From NCBI GenBank assembly GCA_030684645.1, contig JAUXUF010000179.1, positions 40,279 to 104,278 on the forward strand: a stretch of 64,000 nucleotides of DNA, written 5' to 3'. The notes under the pieces were generated by a model. It was not told where the DNA came from and made no database searches. It saw only the letters and a list, made by a program, of their open reading frames with translations. Positions 366-17,373 of the stretch are shown piece after piece; positions within the stretch are counted from its first letter, which is position 1; the number at the start of each line of letters is the position of its first letter. The DNA is from Bacteroidota bacterium. GTDB lineage: Bacteria > Bacteroidota > Bacteroidia > Bacteroidales > Prolixibacteraceae. A program made the translations under genes and the position numbers.

Positions 366-2459
366 TTACTCGTTTACGATTAATCTAACCTGCCAGGGAC
401 CAACCTCCGGAATGATAAATTTCTGATACGGTCCGTCTGACCCCATCGACCGGATGACGGTTTCCCGGCATGCCATATCGTAGAGTTTAATGGTCTTATT
501 TTCTGTCCGTAACATCAGTATTACGTTTTTAGCGGGATCGAATGAAGAATTGGTGAAAGCCAGGGCTATCTTTCCGTTTTGCGGTTCACGTATCCACAGG
601 TTGATCTTCTGGAAGGAAGCAATATAACCCGACAGTTTATCTTTAGAAAGCCAGCGAAAAACGGCTTTCATTTGCGAACTTTTAGAGAGGTTTTCCATGA
701 AAATCCAGGGATAATATCCTGCCACGCAAATACGCCCACCCAATTTATTTTCAAATATTCCTGACGTACAGGCCGAAACTTCTCTGCCAGTGTAGTCAAC
801 TAAACCGGAAAGCGCCTGAGCTTTTTCGCCGGTTTTCCGGAGTGTAAAGGCAGGTGATTTCCAAAACGATTGCCGGTTATCACGTTTCCTGCCGGCAAAT
901 TGGCCGTTTAGTGGATGGCTGGTGAATTTCTCAATCCGGTCAATTTTTTCTGAACCCACCACTTCGAAGCCGGTTAGGTCGCCAAATCCCATATCGTTCA
1001 ATTGCTGTAATGTTTCGGCATCCATATAAACTCCGCCGGAAAGCAGGGTTTTGATCTCCTCCTTCGAAAGGGCAAAAACATTATCCTTGCCAATGATCGT
1101 AACCTGTGCGTTTTTACCTGAATAACAAGTTGGCAACCCAATGTTGTAAAGATCGTGGCTAACCAGCGGATTTCCTGAACTTAGCCAGTTGCCCTCCGCC
1201 AATTTCCCGGTAATAAAACTGTTTTTATTCCAGAAAGTTTGGATTCCTGAAATTTCAGTACGCCCCAAGGATTTGGCCAGCAGGTCAAAAAATGGTCTGG
1301 ATTCCTGCAACCGGGCCACAAGCGGCTCGTATTCATCAAGTGGCTCATCGTACATGGAAAGCACATTAAAGGCAGCCCCGGTACAGCCTGCCGCAATATG
1401 CGAACAGGCTTCGAGCACTACCATATTGGCTGCTTTTTTCAACCGTTGATAAGGAAAGCATTCAATCTCTGACTGGATGGAAATCACCTCTTCAGGCAAT
1501 ACAGAAACCTGCCTGCCAATATCGTGCGACTTTCCAACCAATTCATTGGTATTGTTGTCGTTATAATAGCCACCTCCTGGTCTCCACATCACCGGGATAT
1601 GGTTGGGGCCGGCAAGTATTTTTGCCCAGTTGTCAAAATCGTAACCTTCATAAAACCGGTCGCCGGTCATAAAACCAAGAGGCATGGCCTGATTAATTCC
1701 GTGCACTGTTTTTTCAATCAGTTCAAAAAGACGGGAAATGGTATTCCGGTTGTGTTGGAGCCATGCTTCCCGAAGTATCAGCTTTTCTTCCACGGGGCTT
1801 TCATCCAGCGCTTTTTTCAGACTTTCACGTGAGTATTTCATGCCTGCTTCTTTCTCAAAAATCTTCAGGCAATTATCGCAAAAACAGCCAAGCCCGATGG
1901 GCATGTGGCCGAAACGGATATCATCATCAATCCAGATATAGTCAGGATTTGCCTGTGCGGTTAATTGATAAATATTCCGGATATATTCCCGCATATTTTC
2001 ATCATTCGGGCAAAAAGAACCATGACATACCTCCCCGTCAATGTTGGTCATGAAGGTATAATTGCCTTTCAGCGAGTTGTCCAGATTTTCATTGTGATGG
2101 CCAATGGTAGTCAAAATGTTGATCCCGGTTTTGAACCCCCTTTTCCGGGCCTGTTCCATACGTTCCTTTAAAATTACGGTCCGCTGCCTGATAACATCAG
2201 GAGGAAGCGGGGCATGTGTTTCCGAAGTAAAAAAAGTGATCTCGTCAGTGACGCTTTTGTACTTGTCAAACAAATCGAAAAGCTCATTACAGCGAGTTTC
2301 AGACATCCAAATCGGAACTCCGATCCGGAAAGAAATGAAGGCCTTCTCAACTTTTGTATTCTTTGAACCGGATGGTTTTGCAGATCCTCCTTGTTTGTTG
2401 GCCACCTGATTGCAACCAAACAGCATGAATACTGAAATAATGACAATAATTTTGTTCAT
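366..2459 (-). CDS. Unassigned lipoprotein with GH42-like architecture (TIM barrel, CxCxxC, trimerisation-like domain)
   Basis: 697 aa ORF with lipobox LFGC. Motifs DYIWIDDDIR, GCFCDNCL (resembles the GH42 Zn-cysteine cluster) and IQSEIE, plus a middle domain ending LLSGGVYMD like GH42 domain B. Confidence 0.55.
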   Translation of the reverse strand: MNKIIVIISVFMLFGCNQVANKQGGSAKPSGSKNTKVEKAFISFRIGVPIWMSETRCNELFDLFDKYKSVTDEITFFTSETHAPLPPDVIRQRTVILKERMEQARKRGFKTGINILTTIGHHNENLDNSLKGNYTFMTNIDGEVCHGSFCPNDENMREYIRNIYQLTAQANPDYIWIDDDIRFGHMPIGLGCFCDNCLKIFEKEAGMKYSRESLKKALDESPVEEKLILREAWLQHNRNTISRLFELIEKTVHGINQAMPLGFMTGDRFYEGYDFDNWAKILAGPNHIPVMWRPGGGYYNDNNTNELVGKSHDIGRQVSVLPEEVISIQSEIECFPYQRLKKAANMVVLEACSHIAAGCTGAAFNVLSMYDEPLDEYEPLVARLQESRPFFDLLAKSLGRTEISGIQTFWNKNSFITGKLAEGNWLSSGNPLVSHDLYNIGLPTCYSGKNAQVTIIGKDNVFALSKEEIKTLLSGGVYMDAETLQQLNDMGFGDLTGFEVVGSEKIDRIEKFTSHPLNGQFAGRKRDNRQSFWKSPAFTLRKTGEKAQALSGLVDYTGREVSACTSGIFENKLGGRICVAGYYPWIFMENLSKSSQMKAVFRWLSKDKLSGYIASFQKINLWIREPQNGKIALAFTNSSFDPAKNVILMLRTENKTIKLYDMACRETVIRSMGSDGPYQKFIIPEVGPWQVRLIVNE

Positions 2460-2622: not shown

Positions 2623-5600
2623 TTACTTTTCAGTATTATAAACATCAAATTGACTTATACCTGCATTTCTTGATTTCACCCTTAATTTATCTGTAAGTAT
2701 TTTGTCGAAAGGTTTTGCCCAGATTTTACCATAAGTCATTTCATTATATAAGGTAATCCATTTACCTGAGCTATCTATGTATTGAATTTCAAAAGGATAA
2801 CCTTTCCCTCTGGTTGCAACAGGTAATGTAAAATGAATTTCAGCTCTGCTGATTGATTGCTGCTTTGGAAAGGTTAGTTGCAAGTAATTATTGGTTGAAT
2901 CGGCTGGTTGTGCTTTCCACTCCGTTTTATCGTCACTGTCTGTTGCATTTTTTGCCGGAAAACCCGGTTGTTCACTTGAGGCTGATGCTGTTGCCGTTTT
3001 GCTTAATGAGTTTTCAAAACTCTGTTTCTCTACGATGGGCAATATTTCTCCACTCATTTCTAATTTTACAATAACATCTGCACTATTTTTCGGATAGTCT
3101 TCACATGTTACTTTTATTCGTTGGGTATCGCTATTTACTTTTATTTTTCCATCGGTCAATACCTCTGTTTTTAAAATTGAAAGCGGTATTGGTGGCAGTG
3201 TTATTTCTTTTGTTTCAGGATTGGTTATGTGCAGATAAATGGTGTTGTCTTTGAACACACTAACTCCCCAATCTCCCGCTTTGAACGGCCCGGCTTTTGT
3301 ATCGTATAAACTTTCCCCGTAGTTCGATAGCCATTCCCCGCTAATTTTCTGTTTTTCAATATTTTCGGGGACTATTATACCATCAAGTAAAGGGTCAACT
3401 CCATACAGGTAGCTGTAATCTGTTCCGGCTACCCTAACTATTGTTTGAATACGGTGTTCTAAAGTAGCAAGATTGACAATATCTGCTTTGCGGCTTTCAG
3501 GTGTGACTTTTAACGAAGCAATCTTCCCATCTTTATAGCTACATGTTATTACCGTATTATAAGGGGCGTAAAGTTTAAAATCAACATTCCAATCTTCCGG
3601 AAAACCAGGCAGCAGATATATTTTCCTGTCATCATATTGTATCAACATGGATTGTAATGCATTTATGGTAACACCTCCATGGCATTGGTCGGGTGTCCAA
3701 TCAAAATGTGCATTCCAAAATGCGGGGAAGCGTTTGGGCACAAATCCCTCCAAAGATTCGGATGCTTGAAAGGAATCAGCATAGGGTGCCCTGTCATGAA
3801 AATTTATGCCCAGCAAAAAGGCGGTTTCCTTTGGCAATCCTAAGTATGCGCTAACAGAAGGCATCTGCGACCATCCTCCTGTCCTGACCCATTGCCTATC
3901 GTTAACCCCATCGAGACTGATCATACGTAAAGCAAAAGAAAGCCTTGCAGCATCGAGCATATTATTTTTATAATGGGTAATCTGACGAAATGGAAATACG
4001 GAATAAAATTCAGGGGACTCTACTATTTCACGTCCTACATACCTATCGCCTACGGCTATCAGTGTTTGGCCATGTACTGTTCGCGTAGAAACTTCTGGAA
4101 GTTCTTTTAAGAAGGAACTCCACTTTTGGTAACGGATTTCGCCTATCCTATTTTTATCTATGCTTATTAACCTCCCAAGCAAATATTTTAGACCAGTCAA
4201 CTCAGTTACTGAGTTAATTACCCCCTGATAGGTTTCTACCGCTCCGGTCGGGCCTATTATACGCTTTCCATTAACATCCTTTTTTGGAAACTGAAGATTA
4301 AAAAATTCGATGTAAGCATCGGCACAAGGAAGTAAGGTATCTGCAAGAAATTTTTCATTCGGATTAAAAATGTAATAATCTGTAAGCATTGCCGTTAACT
4401 CGATGCCCGCAAGAAAGTGGGATGATAAATGTGGTGGTAATCTTATACCAAAAACAGAAAGCCCTTTTAAATTTACAGCTTCAACCTGTACGGCCGCATC
4501 ATCGTATCCAAACCAGTTTTTTGCTCTTGCTTTGGCAACATCAAAAGAGCTATTTATATAACTTTTCAATGGTTTCATCAGTTGAAAATCACCACTTGTT
4601 GCCATTGGGTAATATGGATGGCGGGTATTTTGCCACATAAAAGTAAGGTCTCCCCATGCCCGGTAATCGGCATCAACGGAAGCCTTCAATTTCCCTAAAA
4701 AATTCCATGTCCCTTTTGGTGCATCTACGTTATAAATATTGCCATTGAAGGGAACAGGAGTTTCTCCACGATTTGTGCAGCCATTTATATATCGCTGACA
4801 TATATATTTTTGAGTAAACATAAAGGCGTCAGGAAATCCAGTTAGGTATATCCAACTTCTTTTCCAAAAATCACCCCACCATTTCTTGTGTGCAGTAAAT
4901 GCCCTTTCGTTGTTTATTTTTGCGTATTCTTTTGTTTTTGATTCCAGTAGATTTACCCATTCTGAAGGCTTTTCACACTGTTTGGTTAATAAGGTAATTG
5001 CTATATCTATTTTTTTTATAGCGGTTGCTTTTAATGATTGTGCTCCGCTTCTTTTAAAACCTTTCCCTTGCATCAATGAACCAAAAGTAAGAAATTGTAA
5101 CGGGTCCTTTACTTTTTCTTTTATGCCGGAACCTAAACCTTCACTCTCCAATCTTTGACTCCATTGTGTTTCCGATGAATTTTGATGGTACCATATTACG
5201 CTATCAGACTTATTGTTTATTACTACATCTCCGTATAATGCTTCCTGAGATGTTGGTGATTCCGCAATTTTAAGTTTTCTCCATAATTCATATTGAACTT
5301 CTACTGTGCGTATAATATCGCTTGTTCCCTGTAAATGAATTACAGGATTATTTGCATCCATCCACAAACGCATATTTAGGGCCTTACCATTCTCCCCTGC
5401 TTTTATGGTTATCGCTCCTTCTTTCAATTCCAGTGTTTGATTAAACGGTAAACCCTTGACAAATGGATTATCGCTGAATTTCACCCTGACTTTCCCTTGT
5501 TTTATATTAAATTGGTCATCCCCAAAAAAATCAGTACCGCTGATATAAAACTGTAAATCTCCATTTGGTTCTACCCATATATTTACACCTTCAGAGCCAT

Positions 5601-5757
5601 TACCCAGTGGCATTGCGCCATAAGAATTATCACTTGGAGTATTCCATACTACATTGTATTTGGAAATATCTTGTGTACTTTGTGAGAACAGAGATATATT
5701 GGAAGAAATTACAATAACAGTAAAGAACATCTTCAATCTTTTCAATACTTGCTCCAT
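2623..5757 (-). CDS. DUF5703-type GH95-like (alpha/alpha)6 glycosidase fused to a GH29-type C-terminal domain and an F5/8C (CBM32-like) module
   Basis: 1044 aa with signal peptide. N-terminal YNVVWNTPS..AMPLGNG and C-terminal LQSMLIQY..IYLLPGFPEDWNVDFKL are GH95-like. These are followed by GEWLSNYGESLYDTKAGPF..WGVSVFKDNTIYLHI (GH29 C-terminal signature) and ATASASSEQPGFPAKNATDSDDKTEW (F5/8C). Confidence 0.7.
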   Translation of the reverse strand: MEQVLKRLKMFFTVIVISSNISLFSQSTQDISKYNVVWNTPSDNSYGAMPLGNGSEGVNIWVEPNGDLQFYISGTDFFGDDQFNIKQGKVRVKFSDNPFVKGLPFNQTLELKEGAITIKAGENGKALNMRLWMDANNPVIHLQGTSDIIRTVEVQYELWRKLKIAESPTSQEALYGDVVINNKSDSVIWYHQNSSETQWSQRLESEGLGSGIKEKVKDPLQFLTFGSLMQGKGFKRSGAQSLKATAIKKIDIAITLLTKQCEKPSEWVNLLESKTKEYAKINNERAFTAHKKWWGDFWKRSWIYLTGFPDAFMFTQKYICQRYINGCTNRGETPVPFNGNIYNVDAPKGTWNFLGKLKASVDADYRAWGDLTFMWQNTRHPYYPMATSGDFQLMKPLKSYINSSFDVAKARAKNWFGYDDAAVQVEAVNLKGLSVFGIRLPPHLSSHFLAGIELTAMLTDYYIFNPNEKFLADTLLPCADAYIEFFNLQFPKKDVNGKRIIGPTGAVETYQGVINSVTELTGLKYLLGRLISIDKNRIGEIRYQKWSSFLKELPEVSTRTVHGQTLIAVGDRYVGREIVESPEFYSVFPFRQITHYKNNMLDAARLSFALRMISLDGVNDRQWVRTGGWSQMPSVSAYLGLPKETAFLLGINFHDRAPYADSFQASESLEGFVPKRFPAFWNAHFDWTPDQCHGGVTINALQSMLIQYDDRKIYLLPGFPEDWNVDFKLYAPYNTVITCSYKDGKIASLKVTPESRKADIVNLATLEHRIQTIVRVAGTDYSYLYGVDPLLDGIIVPENIEKQKISGEWLSNYGESLYDTKAGPFKAGDWGVSVFKDNTIYLHITNPETKEITLPPIPLSILKTEVLTDGKIKVNSDTQRIKVTCEDYPKNSADVIVKLEMSGEILPIVEKQSFENSLSKTATASASSEQPGFPAKNATDSDDKTEWKAQPADSTNNYLQLTFPKQQSISRAEIHFTLPVATRGKGYPFEIQYIDSSGKWITLYNEMTYGKIWAKPFDKILTDKLRVKSRNAGISQFDVYNTEK

Positions 5758-5834: not shown

Positions 5835-7145
5835 TTACTCAAGAATAATAATGGTATCAAGGTCATCCCAACGGTCTGATGATTTGAGTGTCAGATATAC
5901 AGCAGAGTCTGTTTGCTGCAAATCAATAGTATGATTGCTGGAGAATAAACGGGCCGAATTAAAACGACGTTTATCTGCCGGTACAGGAAGTTCCAATCTT
6001 TGCCCTTTAGGCGGCAAGAAAACATGCAGGTAAGTTTTTCTGCCATCAGGTGATTCTGTCGCTACATATTGCGTCCCTGATAATGGTTGACCTTCTTTTG
6101 TGATATATGCCCTTCCAGGACGCGTTCCGAAAAGTGACTCACCGGCTTTATCAACGAAACTGCCTAATTCCTTACAGAAAGAGCGGACGCCAGGTTCCCA
6201 TCTGCCACCGGGATGAGGGCCAAAAGACCAGCAGGTTCCTCCTCCAATCCTATTGCTTACTGTCGCCTGAAGTATCGTATACCGGTAAGCCAATTCAGGA
6301 TTAAATGTAACCGTATTTACTTTTGCCCACCATTCTCCGGTAAGCCTTTGACATCTTACCCAGCTTGTTGCCGGAAAGGGGGGGAGCATATTATCTTCTT
6401 TGGCTGAAAAGTCAGCACATAAAGGATTAAAACCGCTGTTTTGAATTATCCATGATTCCGGATTACGGTCGATTATAGTCTTTCGCAGCCGTGCTGCATC
6501 GACTTGTTCTGGAAGGCCCCCATCAATAAAATAACCGGAAACATCTTTTCCATACCTTTTTCCCAATTCTCCCAAAAACTCATTAATAAAATCGTTCCAT
6601 CGGGTAAATGGAGCGCCATCATTCCACCCTACGCGTTCCTGGTCTTCTTTGGTAAAATCATGTCCGTCACTTGGATGAACATAGAGCAATAAGCGAATAT
6701 TTTTTGCTTTCAATGCCTTTATCATATCCTTAATAACATCGCGTTTTGAACAGTGACCCGGTAATTGACGTTTCATTACCTCGCTGGGGAAAAGCACGTT
6801 CATATTGGCATGAAAAGTAGTAAATACAACGTATTGCGCCCGCATGGATGCCGCCAAAGCAGCTAAATCATTTACATCAAGGTTATCGGCCAACTCATCA
6901 AGGCTTTTTACTTTTGAGGTATCTGCCCACAATGTTGAACCCCATTGATATGGCTTACCAACATACGTATAATGTACGAAAAGTCCCAGTTGCATTTTCT
7001 GAAAAGCGATTCTCTTTGCAGATGCAGCATCATTCCCTGATATTTCTGCATTAGCAGTTACATTTTGTGCCTGTAATTTATTACTGCTTATTACAACAAG
7101 TAATAGAACATAAACAATGTATTCTAATTTATTAAAATTTTTCAT
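5835..7145 (-). CDS. Divergent GH29 alpha-L-fucosidase-family protein
   Basis: 436 aa with signal peptide. Motifs FQKMQLGLFVHY, AQYVVFTTFHANM, RDVIKDMIKALKAKNIRLLLY, nucleophile region YFIDGG and GESLFGTRPG. Confidence 0.75.
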   Translation of the reverse strand: MKNFNKLEYIVYVLLLVVISSNKLQAQNVTANAEISGNDAASAKRIAFQKMQLGLFVHYTYVGKPYQWGSTLWADTSKVKSLDELADNLDVNDLAALAASMRAQYVVFTTFHANMNVLFPSEVMKRQLPGHCSKRDVIKDMIKALKAKNIRLLLYVHPSDGHDFTKEDQERVGWNDGAPFTRWNDFINEFLGELGKRYGKDVSGYFIDGGLPEQVDAARLRKTIIDRNPESWIIQNSGFNPLCADFSAKEDNMLPPFPATSWVRCQRLTGEWWAKVNTVTFNPELAYRYTILQATVSNRIGGGTCWSFGPHPGGRWEPGVRSFCKELGSFVDKAGESLFGTRPGRAYITKEGQPLSGTQYVATESPDGRKTYLHVFLPPKGQRLELPVPADKRRFNSARLFSSNHTIDLQQTDSAVYLTLKSSDRWDDLDTIIILE

Positions 7146-7171: not shown

Positions 7172-9703
7172 TTATTTAACATTGTCGTAAATAGACTCTA
7201 TTGTAACCGGGCCAATTAGTCCTGATGAAATCAAGGGTGAGTCCTTCGTAAAGTAATTCCATGTTGTGAAACAGTAACGCCCCTTTGACGGACGTTGCTC
7301 TTTTTTCAAAAACCAATCGGGAAATTCTTTTAAAAAACTACCGGCCTTGAAATAAGTGTACCCCGGTAACCATTCACAATCAGCAGGCTCCTGTTCGTCA
7401 CCGATCAGACGGTTAGCCCATACATTGGTGATTTGAACCTCGATCTGATTGCCTTTCTCTTTAAGCAACATGGCCGGAAGTTTTACATTCCATGGAGCTG
7501 TCCATACAACGCCAAGATCTTTGTTGTTGAACACTACCCGGGCCACATGTTTCACAACGCCTAAATCCAAATAAAACACAGATTGTTTATCCGCAATTTG
7601 TTTGGAGGGCACATCGAACGAAGTCTTGTAAGTGGCTGTACCACTATAGTATTTAATGCCCGGTTCGGAATAATTTGTCCAATCATCCAAAGATGTAAAA
7701 GTTACCGGTTTTGCAGGGCCGCCCCATACGGGATCAAATGTAACCTGCCACGGTCCCTTGATTGTTAAAACTTCTTTCATTGAAGGAAAATTACTTTTCC
7801 CATCAGGATCAGGTTTAAATGCCTTATTACGGAATACAACGAAATAACTTTGTGCATCATCAAACTTTAAAGGGATGGAAGTTTTATCATTGATCCATTC
7901 AAATTTTGTAAGGTTTCGCGTGGTTCCTGTAACAGGGTCCCAAAGCTCCGGCTGCATTCCTGAAATGTTGAAACTACAGGTTGCGCTGCCAATATTATGA
8001 GACAAATTTGCGACAAAATAGATATTTGTGCTGCCCATTTTCCGATGAATCGATTTTATCTGAAGGCCGCCTTCCGTATTGACTGCACTAAAATCATCTT
8101 CGGATTTTGTGGATATGCTGCCCCATTGTAACAAAGCCTGGCAGCGCTGCCAGTACTTCACCATGGCTTCTGATTGATTCCACCAGGTTTGAATCCGGTC
8201 AAAATGAGAACCCCATTGACCCATGGTTGCTCCTGGCTTGTAGCGATCATCCCAGGATTGCTGTACAAACCGGTGTATAATTATCCGATTTACGCCTGCA
8301 CAGAAAGCGCCATCGCCAATGGGCTTAAACCACGAAGGGGTTTCGCTCCACCTGCTGTACAGAGGTTGGCCGGTGAAGGCCTCCGCCTCAATTATATTCT
8401 GTCCCGATTTTCTTAATGCGGCCACTGTCGGTTCCAGTTGATAGGGTGTATAGGCTCCTTTATCGGTCCAAAATTCAGTCATTACATTATGCACAAGAGG
8501 CATAACATCATCTTGCCGCCATGGCCCGCCATAGGGTTCGCACAAAAAAGTAAGATTGGCCGCACGTAGTTTTTTTGAAATCGTAGTGAAGTAAACATCC
8601 CTATACAAATCTTTAATTGTGGCCTCAAAATCATTTCTGAATTTTAATGAATCTTCCCTGCTTCCGATTTTTCTTCCAGCAAATGTGACGAGGTAGGGAG
8701 TTAAATCGTATCCTCTTCTCTTTAAGAATTCTACCTGCATTTTGGGTGTCCAGGTAGGATTGCCTGCTTCGTAACTATCAAAATGAACATGGGAAAATCC
8801 AGTTCCAATTAAATCGCCCAAATGCTTTTGGATTTCTGAGATAACATGGTCGATATGAAAATCAACCGCTTCCTGGCTCATTTTATCACATTCAAAACCT
8901 GTTGCCTTCCATTGTGCAGGGAAAATAAGCGCTCCCGTGGTCGTATGCCCGAACCTATAAATGGTCCATTCTCCCATTGGTGCATCCCAATCTATCTGAC
9001 CATCGGATTGCATCTTACCCGTTAAATTTATTACACTGTTTTGAGCAATAAAACCAGTGGAAGGCACAGCTAATACTGCAATATCTTTATAATACGTTTT
9101 TCGTGCCGGTATCTCTGGTATCTCTTCCAAGCCTGTTTCGCGATTGTACACAGGGAACGGATGATTTGCCCGTGGATCAACTTTGGGGCGCTCTAATCTC
9201 AAACTGATATGTGAATTACCCGCGACAGTCTGGTTGGACCAGCAAATTTCCTGCATCGAAAGTTCAGGAGTAATCCAGGAGCCACCGCTTGTTTCGTAAC
9301 CCGGACAGTTAAACATCCCAAAATCCATTCCCAGTCGTTTTGATTCTTCAGCAGCATAGCGCACCAGCTTCCACCAGGGCTCTGTCCATGAAATAATCTC
9401 AGGTGTTGGGCTTTTCCCAATCTCGCCTGCTAAAGATGTTGTTATGTCAGCAAGGCTGAACATGGTTGTCCTGTTAAATCCCGCCTTTTTCAGCGCTTCC
9501 AAATCCCTGGTAATACCTACTTTGCTCAAATTCGAACCCATCCACATCCATAAGACTCCGGGTTTTGCACTTTCAGGAGGATTTCTAAAAGCTTCGGCGG
9601 GGTCAGTCACAGCAATAGAACGATATGTTATAACGCTTTGGGCCTTCAGTGTTAAAGAAATAGAAATTATAATTCCAATTGTAAGAAATTTTAATTTTTT
9701 CAT
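7172..9703 (-). CDS. GH106 alpha-L-rhamnosidase-family protein
   Basis: 843 aa with signal peptide. Motifs FRNPPESAKPGVLWMWMGSN, GFECDKMS, HFDSYEAG, EAEAFT, AFCAGVNRIIIHRFVQQ, and C-terminal LDLGVVKHVARV..WTAPW and VTNxWANRLIGD-like segments. Confidence 0.85.
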   Translation of the reverse strand: MKKLKFLTIGIIISISLTLKAQSVITYRSIAVTDPAEAFRNPPESAKPGVLWMWMGSNLSKVGITRDLEALKKAGFNRTTMFSLADITTSLAGEIGKSPTPEIISWTEPWWKLVRYAAEESKRLGMDFGMFNCPGYETSGGSWITPELSMQEICWSNQTVAGNSHISLRLERPKVDPRANHPFPVYNRETGLEEIPEIPARKTYYKDIAVLAVPSTGFIAQNSVINLTGKMQSDGQIDWDAPMGEWTIYRFGHTTTGALIFPAQWKATGFECDKMSQEAVDFHIDHVISEIQKHLGDLIGTGFSHVHFDSYEAGNPTWTPKMQVEFLKRRGYDLTPYLVTFAGRKIGSREDSLKFRNDFEATIKDLYRDVYFTTISKKLRAANLTFLCEPYGGPWRQDDVMPLVHNVMTEFWTDKGAYTPYQLEPTVAALRKSGQNIIEAEAFTGQPLYSRWSETPSWFKPIGDGAFCAGVNRIIIHRFVQQSWDDRYKPGATMGQWGSHFDRIQTWWNQSEAMVKYWQRCQALLQWGSISTKSEDDFSAVNTEGGLQIKSIHRKMGSTNIYFVANLSHNIGSATCSFNISGMQPELWDPVTGTTRNLTKFEWINDKTSIPLKFDDAQSYFVVFRNKAFKPDPDGKSNFPSMKEVLTIKGPWQVTFDPVWGGPAKPVTFTSLDDWTNYSEPGIKYYSGTATYKTSFDVPSKQIADKQSVFYLDLGVVKHVARVVFNNKDLGVVWTAPWNVKLPAMLLKEKGNQIEVQITNVWANRLIGDEQEPADCEWLPGYTYFKAGSFLKEFPDWFLKKEQRPSKGRYCFTTWNYFTKDSPLISSGLIGPVTIESIYDNVK

Positions 9704-9711
9704 TTTCCCTT

Positions 9712-12696
9712 TTAGTTTTTTTGCAGGTTTTCTATGGTTTTTATATCCTTGTATTCTTCATCTGATCCTTTGAATAAACCGTCAAGTACCAGGGTACTTT
9801 CCGGATTAGACAAAAGCAATTGTTTTAATACCTGTTTATCGGGAAAATCATTTATCGGTTTATTATAGTTCCAAAGGGTGCCGTAATTATCCTTTTCAGG
9901 TGCACCAACAAGGAGAATGCGGAATTTCAGATTTTTCAGCAATGCAAGGTTTTTGTTGAATTCGTCCGGATTACCCAAAATAAGTGCTGTAACTGGAGCC
10001 ACATACAGATTTGGCTCATTTACAGATTTAATCAAGGCTGAGATTTGCTCAAGATTACCGGGATTTCTGCCTGAAGCCATTCGCAAATTAACATTGATTT
10101 TATGCTTCGCAGCATATTGGCATATCACTTTTATGGTATTTTGCAATGATTCATTGAATTTTTCCATGGTGAAATTGATTTCAACCTTCCGGTGTGTGGT
10201 TAGGATCAGATCGCTGGCTCCTAAAACGGTCATTTTGTCGATAACCGATTTTATGGCTTCCATGCTTCGGGCATACTCAAGAGAATCACTGTTTACCAGC
10301 CGCAAATCAGGGTAAAGGTTAATTCCAGATGAAAAATCCACGATCACCTTTAATCCTTGCCGGTTTATCCAGCCGGATTCATTGGCAAGAATTGATTTTT
10401 CTTTTTCAAGCAGGTATTTCCAGTCAATTATTATCCTGTCGAAATTTTGAAAAAAAGTGGGACGAAGCAGGATTTCATCTTTTATGGATGAAATATTCCT
10501 AAGGGTTAGCCCCCTGTTTACAGGATTTGGCGCCGGTTGAATAAACGGGACATCCTCAATGTTGTTCTCTTCCATTTTAATATTAAAGATACGGATATCG
10601 CCTCCTTTAATTGTTTTTCCGGTATTCTTTCCGGTATTGTTGACAAAATTCCTGGGGAGGAAGCCAATGGCTTTTTGTTCTGAACAATCCAGCGGCAGTT
10701 CGGTAATCTTTATTATTTTGCCGGCATTTGAAGTGATTTGCAAGGGTTTCTCAAGCCAGGAATTATTGCAAACCGCTACTGTAAATTCCCCTTTGCTTTT
10801 ACGGCAGGTTATCAAACTGAGATCTTCGCCTGAGTTGAATATTTCATTTCTGCTGAAGATATCACCAAGGATTAACTTAACATGATTCAGCAAAGGGAAT
10901 GGAGTTTTAAAAGTCGAATCAATAGCCGATTTTGGGATACCCCGGGGATTTGAACCCAATCCGAAAGAAGAGGCAAAAGCCGTTATCTTTCCCAAACCAA
11001 CGGCATGTTCAATTACAAGTGGTTTATTATTGCAGGTGGCAATTGTATTCGTTTCTCCGGGAAAATGGATATCCTTGATCTGAAAGGCAGATTCTTCCTT
11101 CAGTTTGGTTTTGTTGTATGAAACCGATGCATTGTTATTAAAGGTTATATCATCCTTCCCGGTATTTATGCCGGATAATCCATCGGGCATATTTTCCAAA
11201 CTTCCAGCTGTTATAATCAGATGGCCTCCGGATTCAACATATTTTTCCAGTTTATCCTTTATTTCATAACCACCCTTTAGTTTGTCCGCGATAACCAGGA
11301 CAGGGTATTGTTTCAGCAACCATAACGGGCAATCACTTAGGATACAATCTGCTATATCGCCATGCGGAGTCGGTGCAATAAACCCTGTTTCATCATGAAA
11401 ATAAGAGGCATCCTGATATCCGGGATAAAGCATATTTAAAATGCCATCAGTTAAATAATCACCTTCTTCGTAAGGAAGGTTGCCCCAAACGCGATAAACA
11501 TTATTGGTATACTGTTGTCGGGGGAACGTCCAGCCGGAGAAAAAATCGACCATTACTGCAACCGGAGTGTAAAGATTGCCCGGATTGCCATATTTTTTTA
11601 CCCATTTATTTGCTGATTGCTGGATTTTCCCAATTGGGCTCAACTCTTCCTTTGACTTATACCGGATTTCTTTTTCATATTGGGCAGGAACCTGATACCA
11701 TCCTGGATCATTCTTATTGAAAAATGAGCCCTCGAATCCAACTGCGACACAGTTATACATGATGTGGCTATAAATCAATCGTTTGAGTAAACTCAGGCTG
11801 GTTCCTTCCATATCGCCACCATTATCGCTCGTGATGCCAGAATAGTTTTTCCAACCCCACCGGTTAAATACTGAGGCATTTCCAAACCAGGGCACACCAT
11901 ATTGTTTACCTGCTCCTCTGATAAAAGAGTAATATATCTGGCCATTGGGTAACGCTTGGGCAGTTTCAGCCCCAATCATGGTAGAAACTCCCTCCTTGAG
12001 CAAATAATGTCCAAAATTCAGCGAGATAAGTATTGTCATTTTATTCCCGAGCCTGTCGGTCAAACCCTGAAAATGGTTTTGAAAATTCAGGTATTGTTGT
12101 TCCCGGCTACCGCCGGGAGATATCATCTGACTGGCATACAGTCCGATGTACCTGCCGTCCTGTTCTCCATTGTCCATACCCAGCCAACGGGGCCCAAGTT
12201 CTTTTTCAAATAAGTTGAGTGCGTTCTGCGGAACCGAAAATTCCTGGCCGGAACAGTCGCGGCATGAAGAGCCGGGTACATAACCCCAAATATCAAATAA
12301 ATAAAGTCCTCTCTTTTTCAATTCAGATACAATCTCAGGTAGGTCTTTCCGGTAAATCAGGGGATACTTTGGCCATATAATATTACCAAGGCCATATTTG
12401 ACGGTATAATTATCCAGCGATTTTTTATAGTCACCTTCTAAGCTGCGCAATGCCATAAATTGGATTTGATTTCCGAAGGTTCCCGCATCCGGCGGTTTTA
12501 CTAAACGACGGGCATCATCAGGATGTTGGCGGGGATTCATCGGATAATTATACATTCTGATTTTATTGACACCTGTTTCCGTCTGCGAAAAACAGGAATA
12601 ACCCGAAATGCCAAAAATGATTATCAGGGAAATAATTTTTTTAAAATTCATTTTCATTTCATTTATTTTTTGATGAAGGATTATTAAAACTGCCAT
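9712..12696 (-). CDS. Unassigned secreted GH-like protein with C-terminal xylose-isomerase-like TIM barrel (probable start 12657)
   Basis: 994 aa ORF; the signal peptide begins at MKMNFKK (ATG at 12657). Putative barrel motif WLGMDNGEQDGRY. GH42-domain-B-like segment YPVLVIAD..KLEKYVESGGHLII. The last ~270 aa resemble AP-endonuclease-2/isomerase barrels (SMEAIKSVIDKMTVLGASDLIL). Confidence 0.5.
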   Translation of the reverse strand: MAVLIILHQKINEMKMNFKKIISLIIIFGISGYSCFSQTETGVNKIRMYNYPMNPRQHPDDARRLVKPPDAGTFGNQIQFMALRSLEGDYKKSLDNYTVKYGLGNIIWPKYPLIYRKDLPEIVSELKKRGLYLFDIWGYVPGSSCRDCSGQEFSVPQNALNLFEKELGPRWLGMDNGEQDGRYIGLYASQMISPGGSREQQYLNFQNHFQGLTDRLGNKMTILISLNFGHYLLKEGVSTMIGAETAQALPNGQIYYSFIRGAGKQYGVPWFGNASVFNRWGWKNYSGITSDNGGDMEGTSLSLLKRLIYSHIMYNCVAVGFEGSFFNKNDPGWYQVPAQYEKEIRYKSKEELSPIGKIQQSANKWVKKYGNPGNLYTPVAVMVDFFSGWTFPRQQYTNNVYRVWGNLPYEEGDYLTDGILNMLYPGYQDASYFHDETGFIAPTPHGDIADCILSDCPLWLLKQYPVLVIADKLKGGYEIKDKLEKYVESGGHLIITAGSLENMPDGLSGINTGKDDITFNNNASVSYNKTKLKEESAFQIKDIHFPGETNTIATCNNKPLVIEHAVGLGKITAFASSFGLGSNPRGIPKSAIDSTFKTPFPLLNHVKLILGDIFSRNEIFNSGEDLSLITCRKSKGEFTVAVCNNSWLEKPLQITSNAGKIIKITELPLDCSEQKAIGFLPRNFVNNTGKNTGKTIKGGDIRIFNIKMEENNIEDVPFIQPAPNPVNRGLTLRNISSIKDEILLRPTFFQNFDRIIIDWKYLLEKEKSILANESGWINRQGLKVIVDFSSGINLYPDLRLVNSDSLEYARSMEAIKSVIDKMTVLGASDLILTTHRKVEINFTMEKFNESLQNTIKVICQYAAKHKINVNLRMASGRNPGNLEQISALIKSVNEPNLYVAPVTALILGNPDEFNKNLALLKNLKFRILLVGAPEKDNYGTLWNYNKPINDFPDKQVLKQLLLSNPESTLVLDGLFKGSDEEYKDIKTIENLQKN

Positions 12697-14113: not shown

Positions 14114-15757
14114 TTAATATGGATTAGAAGGGCTTAATTCCCATATTTTTACACTTTTTGCTTCTATATTCCCTCCTTCAGAGAACAAACTTATTCCCAT
14201 GCCTCCGAGTGTAGGATACACCATGCGCCCGATGGCTTGCCTGTCGTTGGCAAATACTTCTATTATTGATTTATCAACGAATATTCTCAAAACCAGTGGC
14301 TCGCCGTTTTTAATTTCCAATGGAGCTTCTTCAATTATTTTACGACCAAATTTTAAACCCGATTTTCTTGTGTCAAATTTCAGTTTCTTATCTGACTTAT
14401 CGTAATAAATTGAAGTTTCTTCACGACCATCGTCCGATACACCAACTTTTACCCCATATTGCATGGCATTATTAGGCTGAATTGTTACTTCAAGTTCCAT
14501 TAATTCATGACCAGATTGATTCAGTTTAAATTCACTGCCGGAGGCTACTTTCACATTTGTGATTGTCGATTCTTTCATCCTCAGCGTCTTCAGTTCTTTT
14601 ACAGGTCTAATTCTCAGGGTTCCATCCTTACCAAGCCACAGCGAACGGGGAAGTCCATAAGTCCCTGTCCATCCCCAATATTTTTTTATCGAATCCGGAC
14701 GATCATCAAATATCCAACTCCACATAATTTGTCTCCCTTTACCGTCTATCAATGCTTCCGGTGCAAAATAGGCATTGTCTTTCCAGGTCATACGACCATG
14801 ATTATTGGGATAAAAATGATCATTTTTGTAATCGCCAATATAATACTGACATCCTTTGTTGTGGCTAATCGAAAGCAAAAGGTACTTATTGCTTGGCCTT
14901 CCACCATCAGGAGAAGAGGGTAAAGGAAGAAAAGAGGGACACATATTGTCCTCCGAAGCATCTGTCCACTCCCGTTTTGATTCATAAAAACGATGAATAT
15001 AGTTCCAGTCTTTAAGGTTTTTTGACTTAAATAGATAAAGCCGGTCACCCTGTTCATCGGCAGGTGAATCAGCTTTTCTACCATACTTGTTTAATACCAT
15101 TAAATTACCTGTTAGCAGGTAATAACTTCCATCTTTTTTCCAGATGTTCGATGGGTCAGCAGAGCCTACATGTATCTCTTTCCCTGATGCGTCCTTCATT
15201 TCGGTGATACCCCATTCAGTAGATTTAATCACCGGATTACTTCCTGATTTCTCCCATTTATTAAAGTTATGATCAGCGCTTTTTGCAAGGCCAATACCTC
15301 TATCGCCCCACAACATCCAATAGGATAATACCGCCGAACCATCATCATCAACAAAAGCTCCTCCGCTAAAACAACCTTCATCACCATCACCAGGACCAAT
15401 GGCATCGGGATGAAAGCGCCAATGCAACATATCTGTACTTGATACGTGCCCCCAGGCAAAGCCATTTCCCGTACTGTTATAGAGAAACATCAAATGGTAA
15501 CGTCCATCATGATAAAAGGCGCCATTAGGATCACCTGGTCGCCCATCATCTTCCGGAAAGCAGAAGTGATATGCCGGTCGATAGGGGTCTGCCAACAGGC
15601 GCTCTCTAAATTCCCGGGTTGCTTTAAGGACTTCTTTTGAAATGTCTTGATTTGGATTAACAAGAGCAGGAACTGGTGCCGGATTATTTTGCGAAAAGGC
15701 AGATAAATGCAATAATAAGAAGGCCATAAGTAAAAGCAAAAAATGTTTCATGATCAT
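14114..15757 (-). CDS. GH32-like glycosidase with non-canonical motifs
   Basis: 547 aa with signal peptide. Motifs RPAYHF, GDPNG, WGHVSSTDMLHW, FSGGA, YFAPE..GRQIMWSW, LPRSL, and C-terminal LRIFVDKSIIEVFAN. Confidence 0.9.
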   Translation of the reverse strand: MIMKHFLLLLMAFLLLHLSAFSQNNPAPVPALVNPNQDISKEVLKATREFRERLLADPYRPAYHFCFPEDDGRPGDPNGAFYHDGRYHLMFLYNSTGNGFAWGHVSSTDMLHWRFHPDAIGPGDGDEGCFSGGAFVDDDGSAVLSYWMLWGDRGIGLAKSADHNFNKWEKSGSNPVIKSTEWGITEMKDASGKEIHVGSADPSNIWKKDGSYYLLTGNLMVLNKYGRKADSPADEQGDRLYLFKSKNLKDWNYIHRFYESKREWTDASEDNMCPSFLPLPSSPDGGRPSNKYLLLSISHNKGCQYYIGDYKNDHFYPNNHGRMTWKDNAYFAPEALIDGKGRQIMWSWIFDDRPDSIKKYWGWTGTYGLPRSLWLGKDGTLRIRPVKELKTLRMKESTITNVKVASGSEFKLNQSGHELMELEVTIQPNNAMQYGVKVGVSDDGREETSIYYDKSDKKLKFDTRKSGLKFGRKIIEEAPLEIKNGEPLVLRIFVDKSIIEVFANDRQAIGRMVYPTLGGMGISLFSEGGNIEAKSVKIWELSPSNPY

Positions 15758-15789
15758 TAATTTCGGAAAAAATATTCACTTTATCTTGA

Positions 15790-17373
15790 TTACCACTGCA
15801 TTGCAGGGAATAATTTCCAGGCCTTTATTTCCTCTGCTTTGATGGGTGCATCTTCAGCAAAAACCTGAACATTGACTGCATCTTTCAGTGTTGGATAGAT
15901 TACCTGAGTAATACATTGACGGCCATTGGCAAAGACTTCAAGCATTGATTTGTCGAGAAAAATGCGAAGCCTAACTTTTTCGCCAGATTTTACCGTAAAT
16001 GGGGCATCTTCGGTTTCAATAACCGGGTTGTTTTTTGGATCAGGAGATGCAAATGCCATCGCGAACTCTGTATAATCGGGTTTATTCAGCCCTGATTGAC
16101 GCATGTCGATTTGTAATTTATCTTTATCGCGGTCAATAACTATTGGCGTTTGCTCACGCCCGTCTTTTGAGCAAAAGACTTTGACTCCAAATCGTTTTGC
16201 TTTTCCAGGGGAAATCACAATATCCATTTCAATACTATTTCCGGCAATATTGTTTAGCGTTACAGACTGACCTGCTGCGACCGAAAACGGTTTTTCTTCG
16301 GTTGGGTTATACCTTAAGTGCTCTACTTCCTTCGGCGGCTCAATATTCAACGAAAGTTTGTCTTTCGACAATGTCAGCACCCGGGGCATCGACATAGTTC
16401 CGCTTGAAACCCCTGATTTCCGGTCAAGTACCCAGGCCCACAGAATACGTCTCCCCATATTGTCAAGAAGGGTTTCGGGAGCAAAAAAAGTTCCGCCCGG
16501 CCAGTTCATACGGTGATGCGACTCAGGATTAAACTGTTTGCCATCCCATGTACCAATATAATATCGCCCACCTCGGGCATGACTGATACAAAGAAGCACC
16601 CATTTATCGCCGAGCTTAAAAAAATCGGGGCATGAAATATCTTCAAAATCATTTACCCCCGGCATATTATGGGTCATAAATCCTCCAATTTTCTTCATGG
16701 GTTTGTCATAGGAATCTCCAACATAAAGAACCGGAGGATTAGGATGTTTGGCGCTAGGTACGCCTCCGGAAATCTGATAATAAGTATCTCCATCGACCCA
16801 CATGTGTGGATCCCAACCTGGCTTTGCGATAGGATTTGTTTTCGGTTTTGTCCAATGATTCATATCTTTCTGATTACCATAGGCAACACAATTCCCATCT
16901 GTACCTAAACCATGATAGGCCAAAACCACATTTCCATCGTTGGCCAAAAACGCATTACCGCTGAAAATGTCATGTTCAGGGTCGCCGGAAAGAGGTTGTA
17001 AGTCGTTAGAATACCAGCGCCAATGAAACAAATCGATACTTGAAAGATGTTGCCAATGACAACTGTTTTCATCTTGATAGATATGCCAAAGATGATAAAC
17101 ACCATCTATGAAAATGGCCCCATTCGGATCGAATGGAAAGCCCTTGCCTTCTGCAATAGTAAGATGCCATGCAGGACGTATCGGATCGTTCAGTTCTGCA
17201 CGGTGTATCCGTCTTGCTGCCTCGATATCTCCCGGCATTATCCTCTTTATCCGCGTTGTATCTGTCTGCTCTTGTGCTTTTGAGGTAATATTTAATAAGA
17301 AGAGCGTTGCTATAAGAATTAAAAAATATTTCATTTGAAAGTGTAATTTAATATTAAAAAAGTACTTTCTCAC
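15790..17373 (-). CDS. GH32-like glycosidase with non-canonical motifs (probable start 17334)
   Basis: 527 aa ORF; the signal peptide begins at MKYFLIL. Motifs RPAWHL, FDPNG, WQHLSSIDLFHW, IFSGNA, CPDFF, FFAPETLLD..RRILWAW, MPRVL and LRIFLDKSMLEVFAN. Confidence 0.9.
   Translation of the reverse strand: MRKYFFNIKLHFQMKYFLILIATLFLLNITSKAQEQTDTTRIKRIMPGDIEAARRIHRAELNDPIRPAWHLTIAEGKGFPFDPNGAIFIDGVYHLWHIYQDENSCHWQHLSSIDLFHWRWYSNDLQPLSGDPEHDIFSGNAFLANDGNVVLAYHGLGTDGNCVAYGNQKDMNHWTKPKTNPIAKPGWDPHMWVDGDTYYQISGGVPSAKHPNPPVLYVGDSYDKPMKKIGGFMTHNMPGVNDFEDISCPDFFKLGDKWVLLCISHARGGRYYIGTWDGKQFNPESHHRMNWPGGTFFAPETLLDNMGRRILWAWVLDRKSGVSSGTMSMPRVLTLSKDKLSLNIEPPKEVEHLRYNPTEEKPFSVAAGQSVTLNNIAGNSIEMDIVISPGKAKRFGVKVFCSKDGREQTPIVIDRDKDKLQIDMRQSGLNKPDYTEFAMAFASPDPKNNPVIETEDAPFTVKSGEKVRLRIFLDKSMLEVFANGRQCITQVIYPTLKDAVNVQVFAEDAPIKAEEIKAWKLFPAMQW

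Follow-up and report, generated by a model that had tools for sequence, protein, structure and literature searches.

A predicted non-canonical −1 subsite in an uncharacterised subfamily of GH29, represented by an HANMN-type protein from a Prolixibacteraceae genome

To our knowledge, nearly all characterised members of glycoside hydrolase (GH) family GH29 are α-L-fucosidases, and the two known exceptions have altered the side of the sugar pocket that faces O4 and C6. The family has been heavily mined, for the synthesis of human milk oligosaccharides, for diagnostics and in connection with the turnover of mucin and plant glycans. The present work concerns a GH29-like gene at positions 5835-7145 (minus strand) of a 64,000-nucleotide stretch of DNA from a Bacteroidota bacterium of the Prolixibacteraceae (assembly GCA_030684645.1, contig JAUXUF010000179.1, positions 40,279 to 104,278 of the forward strand), the whole of which is referred to as the window. 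Its product, P0001, lacks the second of the two adjacent histidines of the GH29 active site, and the clade around it forms a GH29 subfamily that has yet to be characterised and whose −1 subsite departs from the canonical one. On balance, P0001 is probably a functional, exported, retaining exo-α-L-glycosidase of the GH29-A fold, acting on a fucose-like sugar that differs from L-fucose at C2 and possibly at C3.

According to the GH29-A active-site table (PMC11796335), His129 of the Thermotoga maritima fucosidase TmFuc (His136 of BT2970) forms the hydrogen bond to O2 of the fucose, as the original prediction for this gene had correctly stated. In the same source His128 binds O4 or O3, His34 O4, Glu66 O3, and Trp67 both O2 and O3; Tyr171 serves as the platform, Trp222, Phe290 and Phe32 form the C6 pocket, and Arg254, replaced by asparagine in TfFuc1 and BF3242, lies between the catalytic residues. 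The assignment of the second histidine and the tryptophan to O2 is also made in the work on GH29 α-L-glucosidases (PMC9774334), where substitutions in the −1 subsite retarget the family to other L-sugars, as found in the α-L-glucosidases ClAgl29A/B (7XSF-7XSH) and the exo-α-L-galactosidase BpGH29 (7LJJ/7LNP). Outside GH29, the 2-O-methyl-α-L-fucosidase BT0984 (9HYQ) represents GH139; no other family is known to depend on 2-O-methylation of the fucose (PMC12282258).

The HANMN motif and its lineage

The open reading frame (ORF) at 5835-7145 begins with ATG and encodes a product of 436 amino acids. The features on which the description of P0001 is based are as follows.

5835..7145, minus strand: GH29-like ORF of P0001, comprising a (β/α)8-type barrel followed by a C-terminal β-sandwich, according to Pfam, AlphaFold2 (AF2) and Foldseek
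7068..7145, minus strand: putative N-terminal signal peptide MKNFNKLEYIVYVLLLVVISSNKLQA, Sec-type as judged by eye from the sequence, without a lipobox cysteine
6789..6839, minus strand: motif AQYVVFTTFHANMNVLF, residues 103-119, with His112 (TmFuc His128) kept, Ala113 at the place of the lost TmFuc His129, and Met115 in place of the canonical glycine

P0001 matches the Pfam profile PF01120 (Alpha_L_fucos) over profile positions 28-345 of 345 with 66.2 bits (E 4.8e-18; gathering cut-off 25.2 bits), far lower than the 123-329 bits scored by the canonical GH29 paralogues of its own genome. The AF2 model (pLDDT 92, pTM 0.87) has the atypical (β/α)8 barrel and the C-terminal β-sandwich of the GH29 fold, and the top Foldseek matches are all GH29-A fucosidases (TM 0.65-0.73, 15-19% identity, E down to 5.5e-22), with BT2970, BF3242, TfFuc1 and AlfB as the structural relatives. 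A search of NCBIfam gave no family name for the protein. The predicted signal peptide suggests export by a Sec-type route.

The motif AQYVVFTTFHANMNVLF aligns without gaps with the GH29 family segment K-H-H-[DE]-G-F, with 8 of its 17 positions identical to the family pattern. Alignment of a 34-sequence profile with BT2970 likewise places QYVifTTwHANMNvLfPSe over KYVKITTKHHEGFCLWPSK without a gap, and the register of His112-Ala113 on the histidine pair is the same by phmmer against PDB chains, by the profile alignment with BT2970 and by MAFFT when four canonical GH29 paralogues encoded elsewhere in the genome are included. Since the whole domain matches PF01120 and the three alignments agree, the placement does not depend on a short string, and the earlier reading of the segment, with the first histidine kept and the second replaced by alanine, is borne out.

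His112 and Ala113 are invariant in 34 aligned close homologues (50-86% identity), with Asn114, Met115 and Asn116 nearly so, and the alanine is due neither to chance nor to a sequencing error. Of 50 related loci, with identities as low as 31%, nearly all have the HANMN motif. A profile search of 1.84 billion cluster representatives retrieved 267 clusters (50% identity) at E ≤ 1e-30, here termed the superclade; the counts given for it refer to the best 150 of these 267 clusters, with denominators of 142-151 depending on the position. At position 113 the 145 aligned members have alanine (69), tyrosine (21), phenylalanine (12), glycine (12), serine (9), cysteine (8), leucine (5), lysine (4), arginine (3), glutamate (1) or tryptophan (1), and histidine in no case (0/145), while His112 is found in 143/145 and Met115 in 91/145. 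Because position 113 is never histidine, the loss of the O2 ligand defines the superclade as a whole, HANMN being one subclade of it, and it is clear that the loss is a trait of the lineage and not a single mutation. No size compensation between residues 113 and 115 was seen among the superclade sequences, and the idea that Met115 fills the space freed by Ala113 was rejected for this reason.

Canonical fucosidases score about 70 bits against the clade profile and the listed superclade members more than 240 bits. None of ten superclade clusters looked up had an informative name, and the literature searched on GH29 (2-O-methyl sugars, similarity networks and subfamilies, GH139 together with GH106) yielded no characterised or crystallised member. 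Some 270 sequence clusters systematically devoid of the O2 ligand would mark an unexplored specificity.

The remainder of the −1 subsite

The other active-site residues were mapped by profile alignment with BT2970 and by MAFFT alignment with the four canonical paralogues used above, giving the following correspondences.

6972..6980, minus strand: F56-V57-H58, equivalent to Phe32 (C6 pocket) and His34 (O4 hydrogen bond) of TmFuc, both kept; position 58 is histidine in 133/142 superclade sequences
6921..6953, minus strand: β1-α1 loop PYQWGSTLWAD, in which the canonical Glu-Trp pair (TmFuc Glu66/Trp67) is not conserved and Thr71 and Asp75 are conserved instead
6657..6683, minus strand: Y155-V-H-P-S-D-G-H-D163, with Tyr155 equivalent to TmFuc Tyr171 (sugar platform, hydrogen bond to the nucleophile)
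6516..6530, minus strand: F206-I-D208-G-G, with Asp208 as nucleophile (TmFuc Asp224, BT2970 Asp229) and Phe206 equivalent to Trp222 of the C6 pocket
6438..6443, minus strand: Q235-N236, with Asn236 at the site of TmFuc Arg254, as the asparagine of TfFuc1/BF3242 (Asn246, Asn240); conserved in 135/151
6393..6410, minus strand: F-S-A-K-E250-D, with Glu250 as the predicted acid/base, aligned with the glutamate of the canonical D-F-x-T-P-E
6327..6341, minus strand: T-G-E-W272-W, with Trp272 equivalent to the canonical Trp/Phe of the C6 pocket (BT2970 Trp316, TmFuc Phe290); 139/150 in the superclade
6195..6200, minus strand: W316-E317 in the β8 loop, superclade-specific and without a canonical counterpart; Trp316 in 133/150, Glu317 in 122/150

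Invariant residues of the close clade are His58, His112, Ala113, His157, Asp160, Asp208, Asn236, Glu250, Trp272, Trp316 and Glu317. When the 34-homologue alignment is placed on the AF2 model, each conserved position lies at the C-terminal end of a predicted barrel strand or just past it, which is the pattern expected of an intact active site. The FIDGG segment is aligned with the W-x-D-G nucleophile motif by phmmer, by the BT2970 profile and by MAFFT, and Asp208 is found in 150/150 aligned superclade sequences, so that the nucleophile is indeed kept as had been predicted; position 206 is tryptophan, tyrosine or phenylalanine in 144/150. Glu250, opposite TmFuc Glu266 and BT2970 Glu288, is invariant in the close clade and present in 120/146 of the superclade, at a function whose residue position varies within GH29-A. 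The two histidines that bind O4 in TmFuc (His34 and His128) have their counterparts in His58 and His112.

The side of the pocket that reads O2 and O3 presents a different picture. Neither in the close clade nor in the superclade is there a conserved glutamate or tryptophan column in the β1-α1 loop; this holds under both the hidden Markov model (HMM) and the MAFFT alignments, which disagree on the register of that loop. In the segment following Tyr155, the canonical form of which is Y-Y-S-x-x-D-W-H-x-P-D, His157 (canonically serine) and Gly161 (canonically tryptophan) are specific to the superclade; in 166 aligned rows, gaps included, the residues of P0001 recur in 144 (Tyr155), 134 (His157), 107 (Asp160), 113 (Gly161), 94 (His162) and 111 (Asp163). 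Judged from these alignments, the −1 subsite appears to keep its catalytic machinery and its O4/C6 half, with the O2/O3 half rebuilt, and Trp316-Glu317 are candidate new sugar ligands. A switch of the α-L-glucosidase or α-L-galactosidase type was ruled out, given that His58 is retained and the C6 pocket is aromatic (Phe56, Phe206, Trp272).

A change of specificity on the C2 side can reasonably be inferred from the fixed loss of the histidine in a protein whose catalytic pair is kept along with its O4 ligands and C6 pocket. The conserved half of the subsite would consist of Asp208, Glu250, Tyr155, Asn236, His58, His112 and the C6-methyl pocket formed by Phe56, Phe206 and Trp272, while the readers of O2 and O3 (TmFuc His129, Glu66 and Trp67) would be replaced by the variable loop 113-116 together with His157, Gly161, Trp316 and Glu317. 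If the aligned residues act as predicted, P0001 would be catalytically competent and would cleave with retention of configuration. Its most likely substrate would be a terminal 6-deoxy sugar with an axial 4-OH that is unlike plain L-fucose at C2 and possibly at C3, for example a fucose that is branched or bears an O-methyl or O-acyl group, or else an epimer or derivative at C2. From general sugar stereochemistry, 6-deoxy-L-talose is a candidate C2 epimer.

Gene neighbourhood and distribution

In the window, the P0001 gene belongs to a long run of same-strand genes with short gaps, the order of which on the minus strand is SASA esterase, GH78, two GH32-like genes, a major facilitator superfamily (MFS) sugar porter, a 994-residue orphan, GH106, P0001, a GH139-like gene and a 697-residue orphan. 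A scan for promoters and terminators gave no excess over shuffled sequences, and operon boundaries were not callable. The two immediate neighbours are as follows.

7172..9703, minus strand: GH106 α-L-rhamnosidase, upstream neighbour, 26-bp gap (PF17132, E 1.3e-121; PDB 5mqm, E 3e-106)
2623..5757, minus strand: GH139-family enzyme, downstream neighbour, 77-bp gap (PDB 9hmb, E 7e-77; 9hyq, E 1.5e-72)

The upstream rhamnosidase is homologous to BT0986 of the rhamnogalacturonan II (RG-II) locus of Bacteroides thetaiotaomicron. The structures matched by the downstream protein, 9hmb and 9hyq, are the pair reported for GH139 by McIver et al. 2025 (PMC12282258). That protein is extended by a GH29-type C-terminal β-sandwich, for which residues 766-899 of the protein match 9eu1/9eu4, and by a CBM32. 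It keeps the BT0984 equivalents Gln411, Asn412 (base), Glu561 (acid), Trp683 (−1 tryptophan), Trp403, Asp723 and Glu641, whereas Asn639 and Asn729 of BT0984 are replaced by isoleucine and cysteine, respectively, in the alignment with 9hyq. With this set of residues, the adjacent GH139 looks catalytically competent.

Both orphans of the gene run are exported proteins. The 994-residue one (9712-12696, minus strand) has only a weak C-terminal match to AP_endonuc_2, and neither it nor the 697-residue one (366-2459, minus strand) has a PDB sequence, NCBIfam or above-threshold Pfam match; they are candidates for new glycan-active families. The divergent GH32-like genes (14114-17373, minus strand) have similar counterparts near P0001 homologues at L010:4400-6760, L019:996-2609 and L021:1-1257 (L denotes a related locus in another genome) and may belong to the same degradative set as P0001. 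A 987-residue GH141-related β-helix protein is encoded at 46442-49405 (minus strand), with matches to 9rx2 ('parallel beta-helix repeat protein', E 2e-28) and BT1002 (E 1.8e-9), and the fucose-associated families in the window are four, namely GH29-like, GH139, GH95-like and GH141-like. Elsewhere in the window there are two more GH95-like genes, a GH28, two GH92 and three GH3 genes and further esterases; no sulfatase and no SusC/SusD pair were found among the window ORFs scanned.

The genome itself, assembled into 408 contigs totalling 5.2 Mb, encodes five or more canonical GH29 enzymes (123-329 bits). In four of these the histidine pair was found by pattern scan, and ordinary fucose would therefore seem to be already covered. 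Two of the canonical genes (312 and 303 bits) stand in tandem on the same contig (G000:C381:16272-18577), outside the window, about 22-24 kb before its start and about 28 kb from the P0001 gene.

Rhamnosidase adjacency recurs across phyla. A GH106 gene is the immediate neighbour in L005-7, where the two form an isolated two-gene unit, and in L010, L020 and L026, and lies within 10 kb in L017, L018, L024 and L048; the immediate adjacency spans Bacteroidota and Verrucomicrobiota. By chance it would be expected in about 0.3% of cases (about 6 GH106 genes among an estimated 4,300 or so in the genome that encodes P0001), and it was observed in more than 10% of the loci. Among 58 operon-like neighbours from about 35 non-redundant loci, the Pfam tally was GH106 5, Gfo/Idh/MocA 5, DUF5703_N (GH139 or GH95-like) 3, 3-keto-disaccharide hydrolase 3, GH32 2 and DUF6259 2. 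Three distant superclade loci have GH106 and an MFS porter behind an AraC regulator (L066), GH78 (L067) and GH20 (L065). In the TTSHANMN subclade the gene is embedded in a conserved block of GH95/DUF5703-like, Gfo/Idh/MocA (PF19051 type), GH29-like, 3-keto-disaccharide hydrolase (PF06439) and Gfo/Idh/MocA genes, and this block or its flanks were found in L016, L017 (6038-13398), L018, L024, L029 and L034; at L008:5877-11371 the GH29-like gene is preceded by a TIM-barrel gene of the AP_endonuc_2 type and by a Gfo/Idh/MocA gene. Gfo/Idh/MocA, PF06439 and AP_endonuc_2 genes are components of oxidative glycoside-cleavage systems.

Co-occurrence was profiled at the level of the family, in 19 Prolixibacteraceae genomes including three congeners, because the clade is present in only one of 301 genomes at the class level, which makes that level uninformative. 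A full-length GH139 homologue is present in 5/5 carrier and 3/14 non-carrier genomes (Fisher p = 0.005, uncorrected for phylogeny). The presence of GH106 is uninformative as a profile marker owing to its many paralogues per genome, and only its adjacency is informative. The methyltransferase-like gene of the window, which the original prediction had counted as independent support, fared differently: close orthologues of this MtaA/URO-D-like 'demethylase' gene, situated about 48 kb away, occur in 2/5 carriers and 3/14 non-carriers (p = 0.40), and the link was discarded.

A word-indexed search gave 144 homologues of P0001, the 120 listed all having at least 50% identity. The phyla among the matches listed are Bacteroidota, Verrucomicrobiota, Planctomycetota, Acidobacteriota (Aminicenantes), Omnitrophota, Lentisphaerota, Armatimonadota and Bacillota. 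All 42 of the 42 named HANMN-subclade loci are from metagenome-assembled genomes (MAGs), many with isolate names indicating lakes or termite guts, and the closest of the named loci is a Tangfeifania MAG (Prolixibacteraceae, 88% identity). Carriers of the clade amount to 1/301 evenly sampled genomes of the class, 5/151 of the family and 0/8 congeners. Despite such patchy carriage, homologues of 50-65% identity are found in eight or more phyla, which suggests that an accessory gene has spread horizontally.

Many superclade members are multidomain proteins of 600-2600 residues. CBM32 is fused in 19 of 57 multidomain members, and Ricin, CBM6, CBM35 and CE2_N domains also occur; two close homologues have an N-terminal SGNH esterase, and PF26376 is listed for some homologues. 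Fusions with CBM32, CE2_N and SGNH domains are what one would expect if the enzyme acts on decorated glycans. Many of the superclade proteins, of 1000-2600 residues, also have PATR, SLH or T9SS sorting domains, and two giant ORFs of 2061 and 2731 residues, L049:6020-12205 (Luteolibacter MAG) and L050:4442-12637 (a MAG labelled Akkermansia muciniphila), embed an HANMN-type GH29-like domain with about 31% identity to P0001.

Substrate and relation to described enzymes

Taken with its neighbours, P0001 would probably act in sequence with the presumably co-transcribed GH106 and GH139 enzymes on a complex glycan that contains rhamnose, possibly the side chains of RG-II or a microbial or algal polymer rich in methylpentoses. 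Several points weigh against a sugar altered at C2. Asn114, Asn116, His157 or Asp75 may replace the lost hydrogen bond to O2 and leave an ordinary fucosidase, and the highly variable position 113 may line the aglycone side instead of O2. The assignment of Glu250 as acid/base comes from alignment only, in a family in which this residue moves (PMC11189522), and a comparison of the clade profile with PDB sequences found no solved structure in the superclade, the nearest scoring only about 70 bits. Furthermore, the GH139 association was obtained from a small sample, and the gene neighbourhoods are heterogeneous, some of them, such as L003, showing no glycan genes.

An ordinary α-L-fucosidase, in which another residue supplies the O2 contact and the clade differs merely in linkage or aglycone preference, like many GH29-A clusters, is conceivable though rather unlikely. 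All catalytic, O4 and C6 determinants of fucose binding are kept, variable active-site loops and broad specificities are known in GH29-A (PMC11189522), the asparagine at the arginine site is shared with the active TfFuc1 and BF3242, and relatives are publicly annotated as α-L-fucosidases. Yet among characterised GH29 enzymes, even the L-galactosidase and L-glucosidase variants, the second histidine is practically always present, and the superclade has lost His129 and Trp67, the two O2 ligands, jointly; the remote PF01120 score and the canonical paralogues already available in the genome do not favour this explanation either. The original prediction was that Ala113 opens a pocket at O2 for a 2-O-substituted fucose; P0001 would then be a retaining α-L-fucosidase for, or tolerant of, 2-O-methyl- or 2-O-acetyl-L-fucose. 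This is a special case of a change at C2, and as such we consider it plausible but unlikely. It draws on the role of His129 as O2 ligand and on an alanine invariant in the HANMN subclade, next but one to which the near-invariant Met115 could pack against a methyl group; the adjoining and co-occurring GH139 gene, from a family of 2-O-methyl-fucosidases, and the SGNH and CE2 esterase fusions of relatives fit as well. What stands is the fixed loss on the O2 side, but the freed space is put in doubt by the tyrosine or phenylalanine found at position 113 in 33/145 superclade members, which fills space instead of freeing it, by the absent 113/115 compensation and by the remodelled Glu-Trp pair, which points to changes at O3. 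With an adjacent GH139 that keeps its base, acid and −1 tryptophan, a 2-O-methyl-fucosidase may already be at hand; the esterase fusions imply that acyl groups come off before the glycoside is cleaved, and the MtaA-like gene contributes no co-occurrence.

Since neither the O3 ligand Glu66 nor the O2/O3 ligand Trp67 is conserved, tolerance of a branch at O3 has also to be considered, as in GH141 BT1002, with release of 2-O-Me-Xyl-α1,3-Fuc or a similar unit from structures of the RG-II chain A type. The flanking genes are homologous to RG-II enzymes, and GH29 genes without an assigned role recur in RG-II polysaccharide utilization loci (PULs; 2026 preprint 10.64898/2026.03.13.711244). The window, however, encodes a GH141-like β-helix protein as well, many RG-II hallmarks (GH137, GH140, GH143/142, GH127 and PL1) were not seen in the window scans, and the GH92, GH3 and GH32-like genes do not suit RG-II; with a pocket argument that is pure inference, this proposal is improbable. 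An oxidised (keto) or otherwise redox-modified sugar, cleaved in an oxidative route, would account for the fact that the changed residues are precisely the O2/O3 readers, and it agrees with the Gfo/Idh/MocA and PF06439 flanks of the six loci named above, with the gene order in L008 and with one superclade member fused to PF06439. It is very improbable all the same, as the neighbours in this window encode simple hydrolases, GH29 action on keto-sugars is without precedent, and the Gfo/Idh/MocA and DUF1080 genes, which abound in these phyla, may encode GH109-like enzymes in their own right. That P0001 is a catalytically dead, GH29-derived carbohydrate-binding protein is hardly to be believed: a normally essential substrate-binding histidine is lost, but across hundreds of lineages the nucleophile, acid/base, tyrosine and asparagine vary little or not at all, and the conserved residues are all grouped where the barrel strands reach their C-terminal ends.

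An exo-glycosidase for a fucose-like sugar altered at C2 thus remains the preferred reading of P0001, and it may tentatively be extended to the whole superclade. Recognisable by W-H-[not H]-x-M ... Y-x-H-P-x-D-G-H-D, the superclade could constitute a distinct GH29 subfamily of retaining enzymes specific for C2-modified or C2-epimeric 6-deoxy-L-hexoses of rhamnose-rich glycans, such as 2-O-methyl-L-fucose, acylated or branched fucose or 6-deoxy-L-talose, in which loop 113-116 would tune the substituent accepted. Such a subfamily would be the first GH29 specificity set at the O2 side and a retaining counterpart to the inverting GH139. If methylated, acylated or branched deoxy-sugars are handled, this would help to explain the breakdown of RG-II-like or methylpentose-rich polymers by anaerobic bacteria of freshwater, sediment and termite guts, provide a retaining and hence transglycosylation-capable tool for such sugars, and call for caution with the blanket annotation 'alpha-L-fucosidase'. 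If P0001 is an ordinary fucosidase, the supposedly essential second histidine would be shown to be dispensable.

Among enzymes of known structure, BF3242 and TfFuc1 (9EU1/9EU4, 9EU2/9EU3) and BT2970 (2WVV and related entries) share with P0001 the two-domain fold, the nucleophile, a glutamate aligned with the acid/base, the tyrosine with the D-x-H motif after it, the O4 histidine pair and the C6 pocket; BF3242 and TfFuc1 have, in addition, the asparagine corresponding to Asn236. Unlike these enzymes, to which it is only 15-19% identical, P0001 has alanine in place of the O2 histidine, no conserved Glu-Trp pair, His157 for serine, Gly161 for tryptophan and the new Trp316-Glu317. The 530-residue 'Alpha-L-fucosidase' of 9PNJ/9PNK, the best single-sequence PDB match of P0001 (E 1.1e-11), for which the literature search found no paper, is also without the second histidine (FTCAHGTQHW). 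It nevertheless lies outside the superclade, with 70 bits against the clade profile compared to more than 240 for the members listed, Y-Y-N-P-N-S-G instead of Y-x-H-P-x-D-G-H-D, and an N-terminal extension of about 200 residues. In ClAgl29A/B and BpGH29 the O4/C6 side was changed, for instance His34 to aspartate, and the second histidine was kept as O2 ligand (His199), whereas P0001 shows the opposite arrangement. BT0984 of GH139, finally, with its (α/α)6 fold and inverting mechanism, is unrelated to P0001 and may be its functional partner or analogue.

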